Assembly: GCF_006345805.1 (NCBI RefSeq)
Contig: NW_021836137.1
Coordinates: 62,001-126,000, forward strand
From: Octopus sinensis
Taxonomy: Eukaryota
Direction of reading: 5' to 3'
DNA length: 64,000 nucleotides
Shown: positions 3,097-63,323 of the stretch, one piece after another
How the letters are laid out: every line of letters starts with the position of its first letter
How positions within the stretch are numbered: position 1 is the stretch's first letter
Translations under genes and position numbers: made by a program
Notes under the pieces: generated by a model
What the model was told of the DNA's origin: nothing
The model's input: only the letters and a program-made list of their open reading frames with translations
The model's database searches: none

Positions 3097-3326
3097 TTCT
3101 TTTATTCTTTTACTTATTTCAGTCATTTTACTGCGGCTGTGCTGGAGCACCACCTTGAAGGGGTTTTTTGTTGAACAAATCGACCCCAGGACTTATTTTT
3201 AAGCCTAATACTTATTCTATTGGTCTCTTTGCTGAACCATGAAGCTACGGGGATGTAAACACATCAACACCAGCTGTCAAGCGATGACAGCGGTCAAACA
3301 CAGACACAAACACAAAAAACATGTCC

Positions 3327-3369
<43 letters not shown>

Positions 3370-3535
3370 GACACATGCGACGGGCTTTCTTTCAGTTTCT
3401 GTCTACTAAATCCACTCACAAGGCTTTGGTTACCCCAAGGCTATAGTAGAAGACACTTGCCCAAAGTGCCACACTGTGGGATTGAAACCAGAATCAGGTG
3501 GCTGGGAAGCAAGCTTCTTACCACACAACCATGCC
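3097..3535 (-). mobile_element. Full-length OR/CORE-type SINE (older copy)
   Basis: Colinear with 482-877 but more diverged. Confidence 0.88.
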
Positions 3536-4856
3536 TTTTACTTTCTTTTTTTCCATTAAATTCATTTTACTTAGAAACTAAAATAAAATTAAATAGATAT
3601 GTGTGTGCATATGGAAGAAAAACTCACATCTACACTTAAAAAGTTGCATAAAGACTTGTTTATACACATGTGTATGTGTGTACACACACACGTATTTTAT
3701 CTAGTTTTGCCTATACTAACAAAAGAACGCAATACATAGAGCACAGTGCTCTTATCATAACTGAGAAGCAATATCAGTGACTCAAGGGGGTAAATATTTA
3801 ATGCAATCTCACATGTACTCACACAAAACTCTCAGCTCTTGAGCTACTGTTGTAGCATTTCTGCTATAATAAAATAACGTGAAGCTCTTGAAATTTTGAA
3901 ATAAATTAACATAAGAACACACAAAATATAAACATAAAACTGAAGAAAGCTATCCTACAGGTAAAATTCGATATATTTTGATTTAAAATATGTAGGAATG
4001 CATGTACATGCATGCATCCATGCATATAAGTGAACATACATAAATTAGAAAAGGTGTCCTAGCATTTATGAGTAAAATATATTGAAACCATTGATGAAAT
4101 AATATCCTTTAGTGGCTGCAAAAAGGAATATATTACAAATATTGATTCTTTTTATTGTCATATATATGAGCATATAAATGTTTAGACATAAATATACATA
4201 AAGGTGAATATATTACATTGATTTCATTTGTTGACAACACACAGTCATGCACAAATAAATATTTGTGTGCATTTATTTTCATATATGGTTACATATGAAT
4301 ACCTCTGTGCTTGCATGTGTGCATTTGTAAATGAAACTATCAATAAAGAGTTTTAAGTAGACACAGATCTATGCATTTAACATGTAACAAAACAGGGTGG
4401 GGAGTAAAAGGAAACGAAAAGAAAAAAAAAATCAAAATTTTCTGAATGATTCATACTGGTTTCATTACAGTTTAGCAAGGTTGTATCTATCAAGCAATCA
4501 CAAATATAAACATTCTTTTCATTCTCATTATTTTGACTCTTGTATACAACTTTACATCAGACAATCTCTGAATGTAAATGATCTAAGAGATACTAAGCAA
4601 AAATATTACTTCAATATATTTTAAATATTATTTCCCTATTAAAATCAACAACTAAATTAAATCTATGAAGAAATTAACAACAAAAATAAAACAAAAGACC
4701 TGAAATTTCAACAACAAGTGATAACAATAAACTTGAAGAGGTACTCATGAAGGAATTGAAAAATTATTGGTTGTTTTCATAACATTTCAGGTATTGACTC
4801 AATAATTAAATCCTTTCCAACCAAGAATCAAATCAGATAATAAAATCGATGCTAAC

Positions 4857-23989: not shown

Positions 23990-24206
23990 TCTTTTACTTG
24001 TTTCAGTCATTTGACTGCGGCCATGCTGGAGCACCGCCTTTTAGTCGAGCAAAACGACCCCGGGACTTATTCTTTGTAAGCCCAGTACTTATTCTATCGG
24101 TCTCTTTTGCCGAACTGCTAAGTGACGGGGACGTAAACACACCAGCATCGGTTGTCAAGCGATGCTAGGGGGACAAACACAGACACACAAACATATACAC
24201 ACACAC

Positions 24207-24246
<40 letters not shown>

Positions 24247-24402
24247 TACGACAGGCTTCTTTCAGTTTCCGTCTACCAAATCCACTCACAAGGCATTGGT
24301 CGGCCCGAGGCTATAGCAGAAGACACTTGCCCAAGATGCCACACAGTAGGACTGAACCCTGAACCATGTGGTTGGTTAGCAAGCTACTTACCACACAGCC
24401 AC
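23990..24402 (-). mobile_element. Full-length OR/CORE-type SINE (young)
   Basis: Near-identical to 482-877. Confidence 0.92.
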
Positions 24403-24802
24403 TTTTTAAAAAAATCTTCCTGTTTAATACTGTCTTGTGTGTATGGTGTAGAATTCTAATACTTAGTCGCTAGTTATTCTGTCTAATACTATCTAAGTGC
24501 AACATATTTATATTGTTGAGTGACAGCTGCTTGTGCTTTATATTCTTTTGCTTTTCATCAGAGCCAAGTTTTCAGGTGGTTGATATCACTACAGAATTAT
24601 TTTGCAATTATGTCTAGGGAATGGCTGAATGTTTTCTGCATATGGTGTTGTGTGTATATTATGTTATTGCTTTTTGGTATTGATGGTAGCTGTATTTTGG
24701 TTGTAGATAGGTGTTCTCTAACAATTAACTTTAAAAGCTAGCTGGCAATCTATGTATGTGTGTGCATATATGTATGTGTGTACATATGTGTGTGTGTGTG
24801 TG

Positions 24803-24851
<49 letters not shown>

Positions 24852-26577
24852 ATGTATGTATGTATGTATGTATGTATGTATGTATATGTATATGTATGTA
24901 CACATACATACAGATTTGTGTTAATTAATTAAAGTAGGTTTCTGGGTAAAAGACAATTAATTCTGATATATCCTTTGAAATAGTCTTCTTATGTACCAGA
25001 AATGCTCATTACAAATTGTTCAGTATTTAGAGGTTTTTAGTTTCAGTCATAAAAAAAATCCCCCCCAAAACTTAAAACAAGATGATTTATATCAAAGTTT
25101 TACAAAAATAAAATAAAGTTTTTCATGTCTTCTCCACAAACTGGTTCAAAGATTTAGTAGTAAATAATCATTAGTATGTCTAAAATAAATTGGTAAACAG
25201 ACAAACTTTGTTTAAATGATTAACACATTTTGTAGACAATAGAATTACTTGGAAGAATAAATGGAGAAACTACTTCAAATGATAGCCTATAAAGTATAGA
25301 AGGTCAATAAAAAGGATATAAATTACTCCTAATTTGAAATACAGATTATCTATATGGTTAAAAATAAAAGTTCTCATTATTTTTTCGTTTTTCTTTTTAT
25401 CCAATGTGAAATAGACACTGACTCCTATTTCTCATTGCTCTAAGGAAAATGTTATTTGTACTCAATCTACAGTAAATTTCTCCAGCAATTTTAGCTTAAC
25501 AGAAGCTTTCCCACTGGTCTTCATCAAACATTCATCTATCATGCTAGCATGGGCGAGACAATTTAATAGGATCTGGGGGGAACAGAGGAGAATGCAGAAT
25601 ACAGACTGAATAAAGGTGAATGCATGGTCAGTGATGAATATCAGTTCAGGAGTGAAGGTGAAAAAATAGGAATGGATCAAGGAGGAGGAGATAAGAGACA
25701 GTAAAACAATTGGTACAACACAACCATGTAATAATAAATAGATGAGAAATAGGGAGATTATGTGAAGTGAGGGAGGTGAGAGAGGGATGCGCAGTGACAG
25801 AGATTGAGGTCAAAGTTACATAAGAGTGAATGAGTGAATGTAGTTAGTGAGGAACAAAATAAGATGGGGTATTGGTGGCAGATATGAGAGGATGTTGAGA
25901 AGGTTATCAGATATGAGAGAGAGTTAAAGATTAGGAATGGAAGTTTTATGTAACTCAGAAGAAAGTGAGTCTCAGTGGAAAATAAAATGGGATGAGATGA
26001 TATTGAGAATAATGTATGGCTGACAAAAGGAAGTGGTTCCAAGGGGAGGAGTAACTGACAACACAAAAATAAAATATATGTAATTCTGCTCTCATATATT
26101 TTACAATAGTGACATTAATAGTGATGTAGTTAGAATGGTGATAGAGGCATGGGAATTCAGAAATTGAGAAGTTAGAAAGTCATGACAGGGAAAGTTTAGG
26201 TATGGGCACAGATATAAGCAATATACTTTTTGGACCCAAGTTTTGGTGGGTTGCCTTGATAAAAACATTTCCCTTATTATATATATAAACTTATGTGCAT
26301 GTGTAAGCATGTGCATGCTGAGTATCCTCCTCTTTTACAGGCTTGAGTAACCAGGCTGTGGTCACGTTGGATACCAACTTCAAGGGCTTCAACTAATAAT
26401 ATCATTCTCAAAACTTCACTTGTTATGTATTTTAACAATCATGAGAGGATGAAAGATAAATTTCATGTTGATATAAAACAATGTAACCAGAATGCAAAAC
26501 AATGTAGCCAAAATACATTTTGGTTATAAATATTTCAACTGATTACACCATCCCACACACACACACACACATATATA

Positions 26578-26995
26578 TTATAATAATAATAAATACGAAA
26601 TTCTGTCTGTCCATCCATCCATCCAGGACCCCTGTATCTCAGTCTACATTTGCTCTACATTGACATATACCTTTTCAGAATCAAGATTGAAAATCTGCCC
26701 TTCATTTGGTTCTTGAACAGCCAGCCCTGGGATCAGGTCTGGATGAGGATTTGCTATGTGCTAACAGTTGAAGATTCAAATTTTAGAATAATTCTAAAAA
26801 TTTGTGAATTTACAAGTTTTTCATTTAAACTGAATTTTAAGTAATACCATTTAGGTAAGGAAAATACCATACTGGTAAGGGTAATACCTATAATGCTTTA
26901 TTTTTATTGCTCCCTTTAGTTTTGGGCCATAGGCATAATTAGCCCTCTGCAGTTGCTAACATAAAAGTTCACACAGAGTGTGGCTTTTAAGCTAG
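26578..26995 (+). mobile_element. Non-autonomous Helitron-like element (second copy 27699-28117)
   Basis: 5' TATAATAATAATAAA..CTGTCTGTCCATCC microsatellite; 3' CACAC-AGA-GTGTG hairpin followed by CTAG|T. Confidence 0.6.
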
Positions 26996-27000
26996 TATAT

Positions 27001-27369
27001 ATAAAATGATATCAAATATGCAAGGTTGAGAATGATTTGGGAAAGCCTGGTGCCTGGTTTGGTCTTAAATAGGCTAGATACTTTCACCAAATTCTCAAGA
27101 TGATAAAAGCCTTGTGAGTGGAATTTGGTTCATGGAGACCATGCAGAAACTTGTGTGCATGCACGCATGCATGCATGTGATGTTGATTACACCATTTCAC
27201 ACACACACAGGTGCAATAGGTTTCTGCACGGTTTCCATGAACCAAATTTCACTCACAATGCTTTAGTCATCTTGAGAATTTGGCAAAAGTATCTAGCCCA
27301 ATTAAGACCAAACCTGGTATCAAGCTTTCCCAAATCATTCTCAACTCTACCTATTTGATATCAATTTAT
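27001..27369. repeat. Inverted repeat, ~150-bp arms, ~69-bp spacer (duplicated at ~28123-28491)
   Basis: TGATATCAAATA..GTTGAGAATGATTTGGGAAAGC..GCAGAAAC (27007-27150) versus its reverse complement at 27220-27363. Confidence 0.93.
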
Positions 27370-28760
27370 CATATGCATATTCATTTCAATTTCAGTTATA
27401 TTTGTTTGTTATATGCACCCACATACATAAAAAAACTGAAATGGTAAATACAAGTAATGCTATTCCACTTTTAATATTTTGCTTCAAATTCTTTTCTCTT
27501 TTGTAAAATTAATCTGTTGAAAACATTAAAGATCTAATACAAATTAGAACAAAATTATTCCTTTCAGCTGTTAGTAATTAAATACAAATTCCTTTTCATT
27601 ATAAATACACAATATTACAGAAGGAAACAACTTGTGTGTGTATATATACACATATATATATATATATTATATATATATATATAATATATATATATATATT
27701 ATAATAATAATAAATACGAAATTCTGTCTGTCCATCCATCCATCCAGGACCCCTGTATCTCAGTCTACATTTGCTCTACATTGACATATACCTTTTCAGA
27801 ATCAAGATTGAAAATCTGCCCTTCATTTGGTTCTTGAACAGCCAGCCCTGGGATCAGGTCTGGATGAGGATTTGCTATGTGCTAACAGTTGAAGATTCAA
27901 ATTTTAGAATAATTCTAAAAATTTGTGAATTTACAAGTTTTTCATTTAAACTGAATTTTAAGTAATACCATTTAGGTAAGGAAAATACCATACTGGTAAG
28001 GGTAATACCTATAAATGCTTTATTTTTATTGCTCCCTTTAGTTTTGGGCCATAGGCATAATTAGCCCTCTGCAGTTGCTAACATAAAAGTTCACACAGAG
28101 TGTGGATTTTAAGCTAGTATATATAAAATGATATCAAATATGCAAGGTTGAGAATGATTTGGGAAAGCCTGGTGCCTGGTTTGGTCTTAAATAGGCTAGA
28201 TACTTTCACCAAATTCTCAAGATGATAAAAGCCTTGTGAGTGGAATTTGGTTCATGGAGACCATGCAGAAACTTGTGTGCATGCACGCATGCATGCATGT
28301 GATGTTGATTACACCATTTCACACACACACAGGTGCAATAGGTTTCTGCACGGTTTCCATGAACCAAATTTCACTCACAATGCTTTAGTCATCTTGAGAA
28401 TTTGGCAAAAGTATCTAGCCCAATTAAGACCAAACCTGGTATCAAGCTTTCCCAAATCATTCTCAACTCTACCTATTTGATATCAATTTATCATATGCAT
28501 ATTCATTTCAATTTCAGTTATATTTGTTTGTTATATGCACCCACATACATAAAAAAACTGAAATGGTAAATACAAGTAATGCTATTCCACTTTTAATATT
28601 TTGCTTCAAATTCTTTTCTCTTTTGTAAAATTAATCTGTTGAAAACATTAAAGATCTAATACAAATTAGAACAAAATTATTCCTTTCAGCTGTTAGTAAT
28701 TAAATACAAATTCCTTTTCATTATAAATACACAATATTACAGAAGGAAACAACTTGTGTG

Positions 28761-28833
<73 letters not shown>

Positions 28834-52433: not shown

Positions 52434-53000
52434 ACTTAACTTTACAATGCTTATTTCCATACCATGTTAATGCTTTTTTTTTTTTAATAATTTTTATCTT
52501 TCTACCTTTTTATCTTCGTCTTTTTTATCCCTGGTCTGCTAAGTATTTGCAATGCATCTGAAACCGGCTGACCTAACAACTTTTCTATCTCACTATCATT
52601 GTTTTCTTTTGCTAGATTATCAGGCTTCCTTTGATCCAGCCTCCATAGCCATTTTCTCTAACTCTTGATTTTATGTCCAATTTTTATTTGTTGTGCCATT
52701 TAACTGATTCCATTAACTGACATAGTAAACTAACTTTCTATCAATTACGATAACCTTTTCCTTCCTCTCCTTTTGCTCTGCCTTTCATTACAACACTTCC
52801 TCTACTCTTCGTATCTTTCCACTCTTTTGAACTTACATATATTTATAAACACTGTTCTCTATTAAGCTGTTTGCCAATGTCTTCTGACGAGGGTTATATA
52901 ACTTCACCCCATGAGTCTCTCAAAATTCATGCTAGCTGATACACCTACAATATTATTGAACTTCATTTCATCATTTGCATATATATATATATATATATAT

Positions 53001-54757
53001 ATTATATAAAAGGCTTAGTAAAATAAATTACTTTGCCGCATACTGAACTCATTAGAAATAGCAGCTAAAAAACTTTTTTAAAACTATTTCTAATACTTAA
53101 AGAAAATCTCTCTCATATATAGTGTTTGCTTAATTCAACTCACAAAAGTTTGGGGGTAAGGACATCGAAAAATCAAATGCTAAGGTTATTCGAGAACGTA
53201 CGTTTCAAGATTAGTCAAAACAACATTTCTATCATCGGCTCAGAAATTCCTTGGTTTGGATTTGGAAACACTGAAAATAAGAACATACCCTTTCGAAGAT
53301 CTGCTCCCAACTAACAGTGCCAACAAATTCAAATAAGCAAGCGAAGAATCTCTGTTCTCCCCTTTCCACCAGCGTGGGTTAAAATCATCAAACACTATGC
53401 TTATTTCGGTAAAATCCGAAGCATTAATCAGAGGAAGATTAATTATAATTTCAACAATTGAGGGCAAAATTAATTAATTATTAATCAATTTCACCAAGTG
53501 TTCAGTATGCAAAGGGACCATTCAAGGCGAATTCAAATTATTACATTATATAAAAGGGCTTAGTAAAATAAATTACTTTGCCGCATACTGAACTCATTAG
53601 AAATAGCAGCTAAAAAACTTTTTTAAAACTATTTCTAATTACTTAATTTTGCCCTCAATTGTTGAAATTATAATTAATCTTCCTCTGATTAATGCTTCGG
53701 ATTTTACCGAAATAAGCATAGTGTTTGATGATTTTAACCCACGCTGGTGGAAAGGGGAGAACAGAGATTCTTCGCTTGCTTATTTGAATTTGTTGGCACT
53801 GTTAGTTGGGAGCAGATCTTCGAAAGGGTATGTTCTTATTTTCAGTGTTTCCAAATCCAAACCAAGGAATTTCTGAGCCGATGATAGAAATGTTGTTTTG
53901 ACTAATCTTGAAACGTACGTTCTCGAATAACCTTAGCATTTGATTTTTCGATGTCCTTACCCCCAAACTTTTGTGAGTTGAATTAAGCAAACACTATATA
54001 TGAGAGAGATTTTCTTTAAGTATTAGAAATAGTTTTAAAAAGGTTTTTTAGCTGCTATTTCTAATGAGTTCAGTATGCGGCAAAGTAATTTATTTTACTA
54101 AGCCCTTTTATATAATGTAATAATTTGAATTCGCCTTGAATGGTCCCTTTGCATACTGAACACTTGGTGAAATTGATTAATAATTAATTAATTTTGCCCT
54201 CAATTGTTGAAATTATAATTAATCTTCCTCTGATTAATGCTTCGGATTTTACCGAAATAAGCATAGTGTTTGATGATTTTAACCCACGCTGGTGGAAAGG
54301 GGAGAACAGAGATTCTTCGCTTGCTTATTTGAATTTGTTGGCACTGTTAGTTGGGAGCAGATCTTCGAAAGGGTATGTTCTTATTTTCAGTGTTTCCAAA
54401 TCCAAACCAAGGAATTTCTGAGCCGATGATAGAAATGTTGTTTTGACTAATCTTGAAACGTACGTTCTCGAATAACCTTAGCATTTGATTTTTCGATGTC
54501 CTTACCCCCAAACTTTTGTGAGTTGAATTAAGCAAACACTATATATGAGAGAGATTTTCTTTAAGTATTAGAAATAGTTTTAAAAAAGTTTTTTAGCTGC
54601 TATTTCTAATGAGTTCAGTATGCGGCAAAGTAATTTATTTTACTAAGCCCTTTTATATAATGTAATAATTGAATTCGCCTTGAATGGTCCCTTTGCATAC
54701 TGAACACTTGGTGAAATTGATTAATAATTAATTAATTTTGCCCTCAATTGTTGAAAT

Positions 54758-54761
<4 letters not shown>
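53001..54761. repeat. Inverted multimer of a ~545-bp non-coding, highly structured monomer
   Basis: 53001-53646 is ~1.2 units; 53643-54761 is ~2.05 units in the opposite orientation. Identical ORFs at 53649/54194 give a period of 545. (TA)n on both outer sides. Confidence 0.95.
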
Positions 54762-54789
<28 letters not shown>

Positions 54790-54907
54790 ATTATATATAT
54801 CCATATATATATATATATATGCATATGCATGATAAGTATGGATATTTTTATGAAAGTATATGTACTTGTATGATTGTGTGTGTGTGTGTGTGTGTGTGAT
54901 TAAAATA

Positions 54908-55911: not shown

Positions 55912-56157
55912 CACATAAAAAGCACCATCCGAACGTGGCCGATGCCAGACCCCTCTGGCACCTGTGCAGGTGGCACATAAAAAACACCCACTACACTCGC
56001 GGAGTGGCTGGCATTAGGAAGGGCATCCAGCTGTAGAAACACTGCCAGACTAGACTGGAGCCTGGGGCAGTCCCGAGCTCCCCAGACCCCGGTCGAAACC
56101 GTCCAACCCGTGCTAGCGCGGAAAACGGACGTTAAACGATGATGATGATGATGATGA
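55912..56157 (+). mobile_element. Young RTE-tail element
   Basis: One hairpin module plus the full tail ending GGACGTTAAACGATGATGATG. Confidence 0.88.
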
Positions 56158-56429
56158 CAGCATCAGTCAGTGATTACCTGAATCAGATGCAAAGATAAGG
56201 CTTGATTATACCACATAACTGTACATGCAACTCTCCATCTGAATACATTCCTTATGTCTGTTATTGTCTACCTGTCTTTTCTGCTTCCATACATTCTTGA
56301 AGATCATTCTTGTGGCTGACTTTTTACCACAGTACTAACTACCCTTGATGAAAAAGATTTATTTCTATGATCCATGCTTACTTTAGGATGATATTTATAT
56401 ATATAAATTTTATGTATTATACATATCCT

Positions 56430-56953
56430 CGTCATCATTTAACATCTGCTTTCCATACTGGCATGGGTTGGATGGTTTGACAGAGAACTGGTAAGCCGGG
56501 AGACTGTACCAGGCTCCAATGATTTGGCAAGGTTTCTACAGCTGGATGCCCTTCCTAATGCCAACCACTCTGATAGTTTAGTGGGTGTTTTTTATGTGGC
56601 ACTGGAATGGGAGCCAGTCAGGTGGCACTGGCATTAGCCATGCTCAAATGGTTCTTTTTATGTGCCACTGGCACAGGTGCAAGTCAGGCGGCATTGGCAC
56701 CAACCATACTCAAATGGTACTTTTTACATGCCACCAGCAAGGGTGCCAGTCAGGCTGCACTGGCATCGGCTACACTTGAATGGTGCTTTTTACGTGCCAT
56801 GACTACAATTTTACTTGTTTCAACAGCTCTTCACAAGCATACCATATTGCCCAACGACTGAAGGGTACTTTCAAATGGGCCAGTTGTGCGACAGAGGCAT
56901 CGGCCATGACTACGATCTCACTTGGCCTGAGATTGGCCACAACTACAATCTCA
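56430..56953 (-). mobile_element. RTE-tail element with three full 66-bp modules
   Basis: T5 anchors at about 56589, 56655, 56721 and 56787. Confidence 0.85.
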
Positions 56954-57231: not shown

Positions 57232-58290
57232 CTGAAAGAATTAGAAGCACCTTTCAAATGTAATTATTGTCTTATATACATATTTTTGTGTGTGTGTGTA
57301 TGTGTGTGTGTGTGTGTGTGTGTGTACATGTAAAGCAAAGTGTCAAAATATTCTGATATCAACTGTGGGACTTAAACAGCATATCTAATTTAAACCATAT
57401 GGCAGTGTTAATCACTGCACAAAAATACATACACGAAGTGTGCATATGTATATCACCAAAGGATAGCCAATTAATATGTATACTGAATGAAAACACCATG
57501 TGATATCAGGTGGTATTTAGTTTGCTGAGGTATATCCTGCTGTTAAACTTCATCATTTGATAAACAGAAGTTGTTAAAATAAGTACCACTCAAATTTCTA
57601 GTCAAAAGAATCAACTAAAAGCCCTGAAGATTGTACCCTAACTTTACTTCATCCCAGTGGCTGAAAGCAGAGAACGAATAAAAGAAAATACTCTTCCTGC
57701 TGTGAATTTGTATGTGTAACAATTGTGTTTATGTCTGTGTTAAAGAAATTCTATTTTTCCAAGAGAGTGACTATGAAACACTTACATATTTTAATAACAA
57801 TGAATGCTATAAAAATGATAATGATATTATCAATAAGTCTGTCTGCACTCAACTATTTCATTTTAAATATTCACCCATATATTTAATTACAAATTATAGC
57901 CAGAGGACTTATCCAATAAGTTTATCTGTTTATCTGACATATCATTGAGGGCCGAGAGAGAAAATAAAAATAAAATGTACTTATCGCAATCAAAATTGCA
58001 TTAACTTTATATTCAAATATCAATTGTCACTAAAATTTTCATATTAAGATACTACATTGTACATATTAGATGAACAGTTCTGAAATATATATCATTTAAT
58101 TATCAACTTATATTTAAATAACATTCGATATTTTAACTGAGTAAGAAAATTGTGGTTGCACAGATGTGAATATATTCAAAACAGTAATATAATGTTCTAA
58201 ATACAAACTTTGGGTGATAATAAATTGTACATAAAACTGAATATCCATCTCTCTTACTCTCTCTACACATACATATAAATATATATATGT

Positions 58291-58570
58291 ATCATCATCA
58301 TCGTTTAACGTCCATTTTCCATGCTAGCATGGGTTGGGCGGTTCAACCAGGGTCTGGGAAGCCAGGGGTTGCACCAGGCTCCAGTCTGATCTAGCAGTGT
58401 TTCTACAGCTGGATGCCCTTCCTAACGCCAACCACTCTGCGAGTGTAGTGGGTGCTTTTTACGTGCCACCTGCACAGGTGCCAGGGGGGTCTGGCATCGG
58501 CCACGATCGGTTGGTGCTTTTAACATGCCACCGGCACGGAAGCCAGCCAAGGCGGCGCTGGCATTGGCAT
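58291..58570 (-). mobile_element. Young RTE-tail element
   Basis: Close reverse complement of 55912-56157. Confidence 0.88.
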
Positions 58571-62497: not shown

Positions 62498-62882
62498 ATA
62501 GGTGCAAGCTGAAGCTTGCTTCCAAACCACATGGTTCCGGGTTCAGTCCCACTATATGACATCTTGAGTAAGTGTTTTCTATTATAGTCATAAACTGATC
62601 AAAACCTTGTAAGTGGATTCGGTCGATGGAAACTGAAAGAAGCCCATAATGTGAGTGTGCACGTGTCTTTGTGTCCGTGTTTGCCCCACCCACACACACA
62701 TCACTTGACAACCAGCAGTGGCATGTTTACATCCCTGTAACTTAACAGTTTGACAAAAGAGACCAATAGAATAATTACAAAGCTTAAAAGATAAGTACTG
62801 AGGTTGATTTGTTCGACTAAAACCCTTCAGGGCAGTGCCCCAGCATGGCTGTAGTCTAATGACTAAAACAAGTAAAAGATAA
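62498..62882 (+). mobile_element. OR/CORE-type SINE
   Basis: AACCACATGGTTCCGGGTTCAGTCCCACT..GGAAACTGAAAGAAGCCC..AAACAAGTAAAAGA. Confidence 0.88.
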
Positions 62883-63323
62883 ATGGAAAAACAAAACAGA
62901 CATTTACTGCACATGCCAAGAAGATATTATTGTACCTCACCCCAACATCCCTTATACATGAGCAGCATGCAATTAGGTCCTTTACAATCACTTCAAGTGC
63001 TAGGCTCCACTATCATTGAGGACCCCTCCAGGAAAATGCATGTCTTTAACATAGGAAGGACAGCTTTCCTTTTCAACCAATCAAAAAAACATTGATAAAT
63101 TTTAATAAATCCAGTTTAATATATTTTAATCAAAATGTTGCTTTGACTGTTCATTTTGAAAAACCATCTTTGCTCAAAATACACAGATCTCTCTCTCTGT
63201 CCCACTTTCTTTCTCCAGGTCTTATTGATTGTGGTCATATCCAGTCATATATATTACTCTACCTCTGGTATTTGAGTACTCTTTTTTCCACCTTGTTTCA
63301 CATTTATAAGTTTACTCTGGTAT

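Follow-up and report, generated by a model that had tools for sequence, protein, structure and literature searches.

Metazoan non-LTR retrozymes, described from coral, mussel and axolotl, are non-coding tandem repeats with units of 150-450 nt, low GC content and a compact fold, in which each unit carries one type I hammerhead; their expression and cleavage have been shown, and Penelope-like elements (PLEs) coexist with them in the host genomes (PMC7229834). Hammerheads with a short palindromic helix III act as dimers (PMC4209133, PMC7229834). Mobilisation of retrozymes by PLE enzymes via circular RNA is a published hypothesis (PMC7229834, PMC4209133), and a 2026 preprint with units of 51-972 nt leans on local DNA amplification and states that evidence on the life cycle is limited.

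PLE insertions comprise tandem copies, an inverted 5'-truncated copy and a one-sided tail (PMC8557442), and EN+ PLEs (Poseidon PAc, PMC11167929; Naiad, Hydra and Neptune, PMC8557442) also target (TA)n and possess a hammerhead along with two internal start sites. Purified PLE protein, which is predicted to be dimeric, nicks and extends both strands, with two internal RNA start sites bounding the 'tail'; hammerhead mutants of an Anolis PLE insert normally, and its AC-rich start sites lack homology to the target (PMC11167929). Non-autonomous PLE derivatives usually resemble the 3' end of their partner. They include MRC1 of Chlamydomonas, which is non-coding, multicopy, arranged head to tail and mobilised in trans, while Chlamys elements are mostly without canonical hammerheads (PMC8557442). 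A viroid hammerhead variant with the core substitution U4C has considerably lower activity in vitro but is reported to retain enough in vivo (PMC3088659).

Here we analyse a tandemly repeated 545-nt unit in a 64,000-nt stretch of the Octopus sinensis genome (the window). We conclude, with a probability of about 0.72, that the unit is a non-coding hammerhead retroelement, that is, an animal retrozyme, whose two-armed insertions were likely written by a borrowed PLE reverse transcriptase (RT)/endonuclease copying a circular 545-nt RNA. Judged by every testable feature of the sequence, the unit very probably belongs to the metazoan hammerhead retrozymes; its PLE-style mobilisation from an RNA circle is probable.

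The unit shares with those retrozymes the non-coding tandem organization, the single type I hammerhead, the low GC content, the compact fold and the presence of PLEs in the same genome, and it resembles axolotl HHR_Amex2 in its short palindromic helix III and in a U-U mismatch at the base of helix II. It differs in its length (545-566 nt, within the range of the preprint), in forming short, dispersed, two-armed (TA)n insertions with two fixed ends, in a 25-nt helix II with a conserved AAU/UAA loop, in the U4C core of its youngest subfamily, and in a hammerhead that is predicted to be blocked in the circle; it is also known here from sequence alone. Its partial tandems, inverted 5'-truncated copy, one-end tail, (TA)n target, hammerhead and two internal start sites are those of EN+ PLEs, from which it departs in having no ORF, a tail of 98 nt rather than 30-40 nt, start sites that are target-matching TATA words, and arms of up to 12 exact laps. 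It is like MRC1 in being non-coding, multicopy and head to tail and, on our reading, mobilised in trans. Unlike most PLE derivatives it showed no sequence similarity to a partner among 34 PLE loci, and it carries a hammerhead. The viroid U4C variant has the same core change, which in the unit marks an expanding subfamily with about 1,000 motifs.

We found no published account of the 545-nt family in the hammerhead, retrozyme, Penelope-like, octopus or mollusc literature, although repeat databases and supplements may list it; the word 'hammerhead' is absent from the available portion of a recent octopus repeat annotation (PMC13282606). What is new is the two-armed architecture with one site per arm at about 90 loci, the evidence from variants for rolling-circle copying, a long-helix-II hammerhead invisible to Rfam, and an expanding U4C subfamily.

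The 545-nt unit and its genomic distribution

The insertion (Table 1) has a repeat period of 545 nt, which confirms the monomer length given in the original prediction, a note made on this DNA from its letters alone. It contains no ORF of at least 100 aa; the RT plus GIY-YIG ORF required of an autonomous PLE is absent from it, and no long terminal direct repeats were seen flanking the arrays. A DNA search of the source assembly (G000; 2.72 Gb in 13,516 contigs) returned 234 matches from the best 40 of 934 candidates, and the 150 matches listed have 95-100% identity to the query and are spread over many chromosomes. The arrays themselves are 94-100% identical to the window unit and likewise dispersed. 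The 545-base repeat is a young, non-coding mobile element, with about 2,400 hammerhead-bearing loci by arithmetic from the motif and motifs-per-locus counts given below. Such loci are young and short enough to be read whole, and their geometry and variants separate competing models of retrozyme spread. Target-site duplications are not definable within (TA)n.

A second contig (L067, G000:C12617:49000-57000) carries the same insertion and flanks and is probably an uncollapsed haplotype; a G that it carries at about window position 53012 is absent from the window, which shows a 1-nt deletion there. Public runs under six organism labels also contain most of the unit's words, showing that the family extends beyond this assembly; no RNA data set was listed among the runs containing the unit. 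A bacterial promoter scan gave a chance-level result and was discarded, as its model is not applicable to an animal.

Table 1. Positions of the insertion, its RNA features and other repeats in the window
Feature	Position	Strand	Remark
Whole insertion	52998-54761		(TA)n flanking both sides
Left half of target, (TA)n microsatellite	52979..52997
Right half of target, (TA)n microsatellite	54762..54820
Inverted arm, 1.19 units	52998..53646	-	3' end is site A abutting (TA)n; 5'-truncated at inner junction
Direct arm, 2.07 head-to-tail 545-nt units	53636..54761	+	3' end is site B abutting (TA)n
Inner 5'-to-5' junction of both arms	53636..53646		Short overlap; exact TTAA at 53643-46
Single full 545-nt unit, predicted circular RNA	53647..54191	+	Circular MFE -138.0
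Long arm holding hammerhead	53718..53997	+	Closed by 53718-27 / 53988-97; compensatory pairs
Possible lock strand	53757..53762	+	Pairs with 53919-24 across predicted cut; among helices of the original prediction
Type I hammerhead, window copy	53874..53925	+	Core CCGAUGA (U4C)
Helix I	53874-77 / 53922-25	+
Core C3-A9	53878-84	+	U4C at 53879
Helix II, 25 nt	53885-909	+	AAU/UAA internal loop
G12-A15.1 (GAAA)	53910-13	+
Helix III, two pairs	53913-14 / 53919-20	+	Loop within 10-nt palindrome
Predicted cut	after 53921 (GUU)	+
Hammerhead copy (U4C), inverted arm	53191..53242	-	Sequence
Hammerhead copy (U4C), second unit	54419..54470	+	Sequence
Most conserved domain	54068..54161	+	94-98% across subfamilies; open loop displays site A
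End site A (TATATA)	54109..54119	+	Left end here; unpaired probability 0.49-0.72; inferred RT start, one arm
End site B (TATA)	54214..54217	+	Used at 54758-61 here; unpaired probability 0.92; inferred RT start, other arm
SINE-like repeat family, first set	473-881, 3097-3540, 23990-24403, 62511-62890
SINE-like repeat family, second set	1150-1990, 55912-56700, 58275-58563

RNA fold and strand

The original prediction held that the monomer folds almost end to end. All 11 of its helix word pairs are located in 53643-54190, at coordinates that agree, and the interval folds strongly on the plus strand, at -139.8 kcal/mol in linear mode (z -4.57; 0 of 100 shuffles equal it) and -134.1 kcal/mol in circular mode (z about -5.8 against 40 shuffles). 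The compact monomer fold of metazoan non-LTR retrozymes is therefore present, while the rod-like extent is not, as about 65% of the bases are paired and the structure is branched. Three of the listed helices, GAGAAC/GTTCTC, GAGATT/AATCTT and GAATTTGTTGG/CCAAGGAATTT, fall outside the window MFE as alternatives. The apical hairpin at 53808-53837 is about 17-18 nt shorter than in the 555, 558 and 566 subfamilies, a deletion that explains the greater part of the length difference between them and the 545-nt subfamily.

The minus strand likewise folds better than shuffles (linear -110 kcal/mol, z -3.15; circular -104.2, z -3.4 against 40 shuffles). The two strands differ in energy by -29.9 and their shuffles by -20.7 +/- 6.4; the observed gap is only about 1.4 sd larger, so energy by itself cannot choose the strand; we rejected the gap as proof of RNA selection because it is mostly base composition. 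The claimed strand-specific G-U pairing held in strand-neutral tests. A single copy has 16 G-T against 8 A-C opposite helix ends. We then compared six copies of the unit, drawn from subfamilies with 79-91% identity to the one in the window, over a strand-neutral set of 107 pairs that were predicted for both strands when G-U pairing was disallowed. Of the non-Watson-Crick combinations in this set, 18 were G-U, 3 were A-C and 10 were of other kinds (p=0.0015). Compensatory Watson-Crick switches affected nine pairs, compared with 1.3 +/- 1.1 after re-pairing (0 of 2000 as high), although the six copies are related and these changes are not independent events. Mapped on the MFE structure of the window copy, the distinct changes divide into 68 that disrupt a pair, 47 that preserve it with a change on one side and 11 that preserve it with changes on both; conservation thus does not extend to every helix.

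Covariation is positive both in these compensatory pairs and in the hammerhead helices described below, and hammerhead polarity, 5'-truncation geometry and the G-U test agree that the plus strand is the RNA and template strand, as had been predicted. On this comparative evidence the fold is under RNA-level selection on the plus strand. The most conserved domain, at 54068..54161, is a putative recognition element for the reverse transcriptase.

A type I hammerhead in the unit

The original prediction reported no canonical ribozyme and proposed that monomers might be processed by an unrecognised ribozyme or a protein. Neither is needed, as a type I hammerhead with the single core substitution U4C (at 53879) sits inside the very interval it described, and sister copies have the exact core. 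The observation in that note was largely right and its interpretation half right. The hammerhead is easily overlooked because of U4C and of a 25-nt helix II with a decoy GAAA. A first regular-expression scan of both strands found no exact word for a hammerhead, hairpin, twister, HDV or pistol ribozyme; a hammerhead-like word at unit position 521 was rejected, having C at position 8 and being buried in a stem. What exposed the motif was a T for C at 53879 in contigs from public runs (depth 51.8/91.8 in X14, 78.5/83.5 in X18 and 20.5/51.3 in X8; none in X13), together with loose contig ends carrying intact CUGANGA.

A pattern for the canonical core gave 3,894 matches in the assembly and one for the U4C core 1,014, with 0 matches for the reversed-pattern control in each case. 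The core C3 U4 G5 A6 N7 G8 A9 ... G12 A13 A14 A15.1, U16.1, H17 is exact in the 3,894 motifs, and the window copies differ from it at U4C alone; around it lies the three-helix layout of a type I hammerhead, with helix I open. Among the 100 U4C matches listed, 99 fall in the window's 545-nt subfamily. A further 34 motif matches include families of about 60% identity in which the internal loop of helix II and the 3' domain are retained.

In a wide set of 14 copies, which takes in families as distant as about 60% identity, the hammerhead helices are paired in 99.4% of 168 cells, compared with 20-44% in slid controls. Two-sided changes occur in 6 of the 12 hammerhead pairs, helix I contributing 3 of its 4, and the covariation score is 0.553 against 0.185 +/- 0.03 in shuffles (0 of 500 as high), a control that ignores relatedness. 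The strength of this signal requires the distant families, as the 10 closer copies alone show weak covariation (two-sided changes in 1 of 13 pairs; 18 of 500 shuffles as high). Helix III is invariant across copies and so uninformative for covariation, and position 10.1-11.1 is often mismatched.

Rfam gave 0 hits over the whole window at the gathering score. With E up to 5-10, the insertion and four relatives gave no hammerhead, only chance matches to microRNA, snoRNA and CRISPR families, so that even canonical-core copies go unmatched. The long helix II probably explains this miss, and a match to Rfam is a database convenience rather than a defining feature of a hammerhead. Since the motif is invisible to Rfam, such families are probably undercounted.

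Architecture of the insertions

Sites A and B are TATA words, largely unpaired in the plus-strand fold, that abut (TA)n; they lie about 198 and 296 nt past the predicted cut and are separated by 98 nt. With the duplicate contig L067 left out, the 37 best-hit arrays comprise 30 with A+B ends, one B+B, one with an unclassified end plus A, and five single-armed. One site per arm therefore holds in 30 of 31 classifiable best-hit arrays (p ~3e-8 under independent site choice). Outside this sample, 20 consecutive U4C arrays on C1 comprise nine A+B, one unclassified plus A, nine single-armed and one non-adjacent pair, with no A+A or B+B among them. Canonical-core loci, partly hand-picked, are A+B in 15 of 34 cases; several of their 'unclassified' ends are site B over-extended into TA, which makes one such locus B+B. 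The same two sites are reused in subfamilies at 76-92% identity and in the families of about 60% identity.

Outer 3' ends are fixed and inner 5' ends fall at random phase. The arms join with offsets mostly between -8 and +11 nt (41 adjacent pairs), and 5' ends are not piled up at the predicted cut, the first base after it starting 1 of 160 arms. The tandem copies with an inverted 5'-truncated copy, the one-end tail and the microsatellite target that characterize PLE insertions are all found here. The insertion is mobilised PLE-style; its geometry is observed directly and the enzyme is inferred. The one-site-per-arm rule extends the in vitro two-start-site result for PLEs.

Variants shared between laps and arms

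We examined variants present in at least two laps at sites covered by both arms, and 25 of 30 occur in both arms. U4C arrays with at least three laps carry variants fixed in every lap in 26 of 42 cases, representing 24 distinct haplotypes, and the longest arms run to 12.1 laps. Together, 100 arms cross the predicted cut 261 times; a difference within 4 nt of it was seen in 13 crossings, 10 of which carry a known sister allele and one an indel. Repeated fixation across laps and arms implies repeated passage through a single unit that was copied many times without scar, which a circle gives directly. The array genetics thus favours rolling-circle reverse transcription of a circular RNA. The fixed U4C haplotypes further indicate that U4C RNA still becomes monomeric at times.

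The remaining 5 of 30 variants are restricted to some laps. A 3-nt deletion in the minus arm of L037 alternates, appearing in laps 4, 6 and 8 of nine, and partly alternating variants were also seen in L031, L045, L052 and L063. Some templates were therefore not one uniform unit; dimer circles, linear multimers, a later duplication or an error of assembly may lie behind such patterns. Among unsampled loci there may be parent arrays with matching haplotypes.

A-to-I editing as the origin of the fixed variants is unsupported (A>G at 8 and T>C at 6 of 29 sites, p=0.23). Compared over 53647-54191, contigs of X14 and X18, which we guess to be RNA, show A>G/T>C at 41/29 and 13/24 places respectively, and two DNA runs show 4-9 such differences. 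The excess could reflect A-to-I editing of double-stranded RNA from inverted arms or more diverged subfamilies. An X18 contig with the 3' domain alone was set aside as a single old 5'-truncated copy with host flank.

A candidate Penelope-like partner

A GIY-YIG search of the assembly (best 150 of 5,029 candidates) returned many near-identical matches, at least six of them in 781-aa open frames. They define an intact PLE family with a 781-aa RT plus GIY-YIG ORF, one copy of which lies at G000:C3:65734371-65736713. Its insertions sit in (TA)n and have two end sites separated by about 31-38 nt; the three two-armed insertions observed use one site each. By eye this family has a minimal hammerhead with a U3-A8 core, and helix II is conserved between two families. 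Young intact members include L089:2332-6226 (G000:C3) and its relatives, with repeats of about 92 bp in the 3' region; L079 and L096 have a third PLE end directly after a U3-A8 hammerhead motif.

The 781-aa PLE is a plausible partner of the unit, with no detectable shared sequence and a tail of about 35 nt against the unit's 98. No sequence common to the unit and the PLEs was found among 34 GIY-YIG loci from the best 150 of 5,029 candidates, and no PLE ORF lies within 3.0-4.5 kb of the distant hammerhead families at 12 loci; L210 has one short GIY-YIG-region match on the opposite strand. One genome offers both ribozymes of naturally graded strength and an intact candidate enzyme, which opens the function of hammerheads in PLEs and retrozymes to direct tests.

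Other hammerhead-like families in the assembly account for 2,551 matches against 308 in the control. They are dominated by an abundant, mostly single-copy family whose helix II starts with AGGCUGG and which probably represents the pseudo-LTR from an older PLE. At L046:931-2253 (G000:C19), a PLE fragment containing a 441-aa open frame is found about 1 kb away from one of the retrozyme arrays; this proximity likely reflects no more than a shared preference for TA-rich target DNA.

Cost of the hammerhead fold in the youngest subfamily

Folded in isolation, the hammerhead motifs do not outperform their shuffles (z +1.0 to -0.8). When the hammerhead fold was forced in the circle, it cost 10.2 kcal/mol in the window unit, 8.5 in a canonical-core 545 copy and 1.1-5.8 in four others, which makes the window subfamily the costliest. 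This subfamily also shows G-U where most relatives show U-A (helix I) or C-G (helix II). The helix of 53757-62 with 53919-24 spans the predicted cut and might lock the ribozyme; its pairing is G-U in the 555 and 558 subfamilies, has a two-sided change in 566 and is mismatched in L132 and L133. Self-pairing of the 10-nt helix III palindrome yields -11.6 kcal/mol.

U4C arrays have 2.8 motifs per locus (98 in 35 loci) and canonical-core arrays 1.9 (100 in 53; p=0.035), counted over the first 100 matches of each list, minus one stray match and the last, incomplete locus for U4C; age and subfamily confound this difference in array length, and we treat it as a lead only. We tentatively suggest, while thinking it doubtful, that the youngest subfamily gained by damping its own ribozyme through U4C, the two G-U changes and the lock, so that circles would stay closed longer and allow more laps, each insertion involving one PLE dimer, one circle, two loop sites and opposite rolling-circle copies. 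If true, genome sequence would here reveal that a mobile RNA had been selected for a slower ribozyme.

Proposed life cycle and alternatives

We propose that a genomic multimer would be transcribed from the plus strand and that its type I hammerheads, probably acting as double hammerheads via the helix III palindrome, would cut after GUU to give unit-length RNA that a host ligase could close into a circle. A PLE protein would then bind the conserved 3' domain and nick both strands of a (TA)n tract. One arm would start at site A and the other at site B, where unpaired TATA words could anneal to the target. Each enzyme would circle the same RNA for 0.1 to 12 laps before a random stop, and the copies would be joined 5'-to-5' via a few bases of overlap or filler.

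The same element and PLE machinery could instead use as template a long uncleaved linear transcript of the parent array, with the hammerhead, especially in its U4C form, dispensable and no circle. PLE insertion in vitro is unaffected by hammerhead mutants (PMC11167929) and U4C weakens cleavage (PMC3088659); the window subfamily has the costliest hammerhead fold and more motifs per locus (2.8 against 1.9, p=0.035). Variants confined to some laps do exist, and junctions without a scar are equally expected from such a template. A new mutation, however, would hit one lap, whereas 24 haplotypes are fixed over all laps in U4C arrays; linear copying could only shrink arrays, yet arms attain 12 laps; and the hammerhead is conserved and covarying across families of about 60% identity. 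We consider a linear template unlikely. A single PLE-type insertion that later grew as DNA through slippage or unequal crossover, a route which the preprint (10.64898/2026.07.22.740005) proposes in its discussion for vertebrate retrozymes, would leave it unexplained that both opposite arms are multimeric with the same variants, that outer ends are fixed and inner ends random, and that arrays on many chromosomes are 94-100% identical to the window unit, and it already requires a founder of more than one unit in each arm. Such expansion would homogenise variants within an arm, and partial alternation could mean dimer duplications; even so, we judge it quite improbable.

Tandem arrays are also known from Helitron/Helentron- or MITE-derived elements, and several perfect inverted repeats, along with a minus strand that likewise beats shuffles, could suggest a DNA element whose palindromes merely mimic RNA structure. 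The strand-specific G-U excess, the compensatory changes and a covarying hammerhead on one strand largely refute this, and the arrays show random 5' truncation and fixed 3' ends rather than terminal inverted repeats, Helitron ends or strand-symmetric palindromes; we leave it a very slight probability.

Other repeats in the window

At 26571-28800 a stretch of 1,110 bp is doubled head to tail at 99.6% identity, with (TA)n between and after the copies, each of which contains a decayed, MITE-like palindrome of about 380 bp (80%). The doubling is either a local duplication or an assembly artefact. The window also contains two dispersed SINE-like families (66-92% identity; Table 1), one of them with internal tandem units of 66-68 bp.
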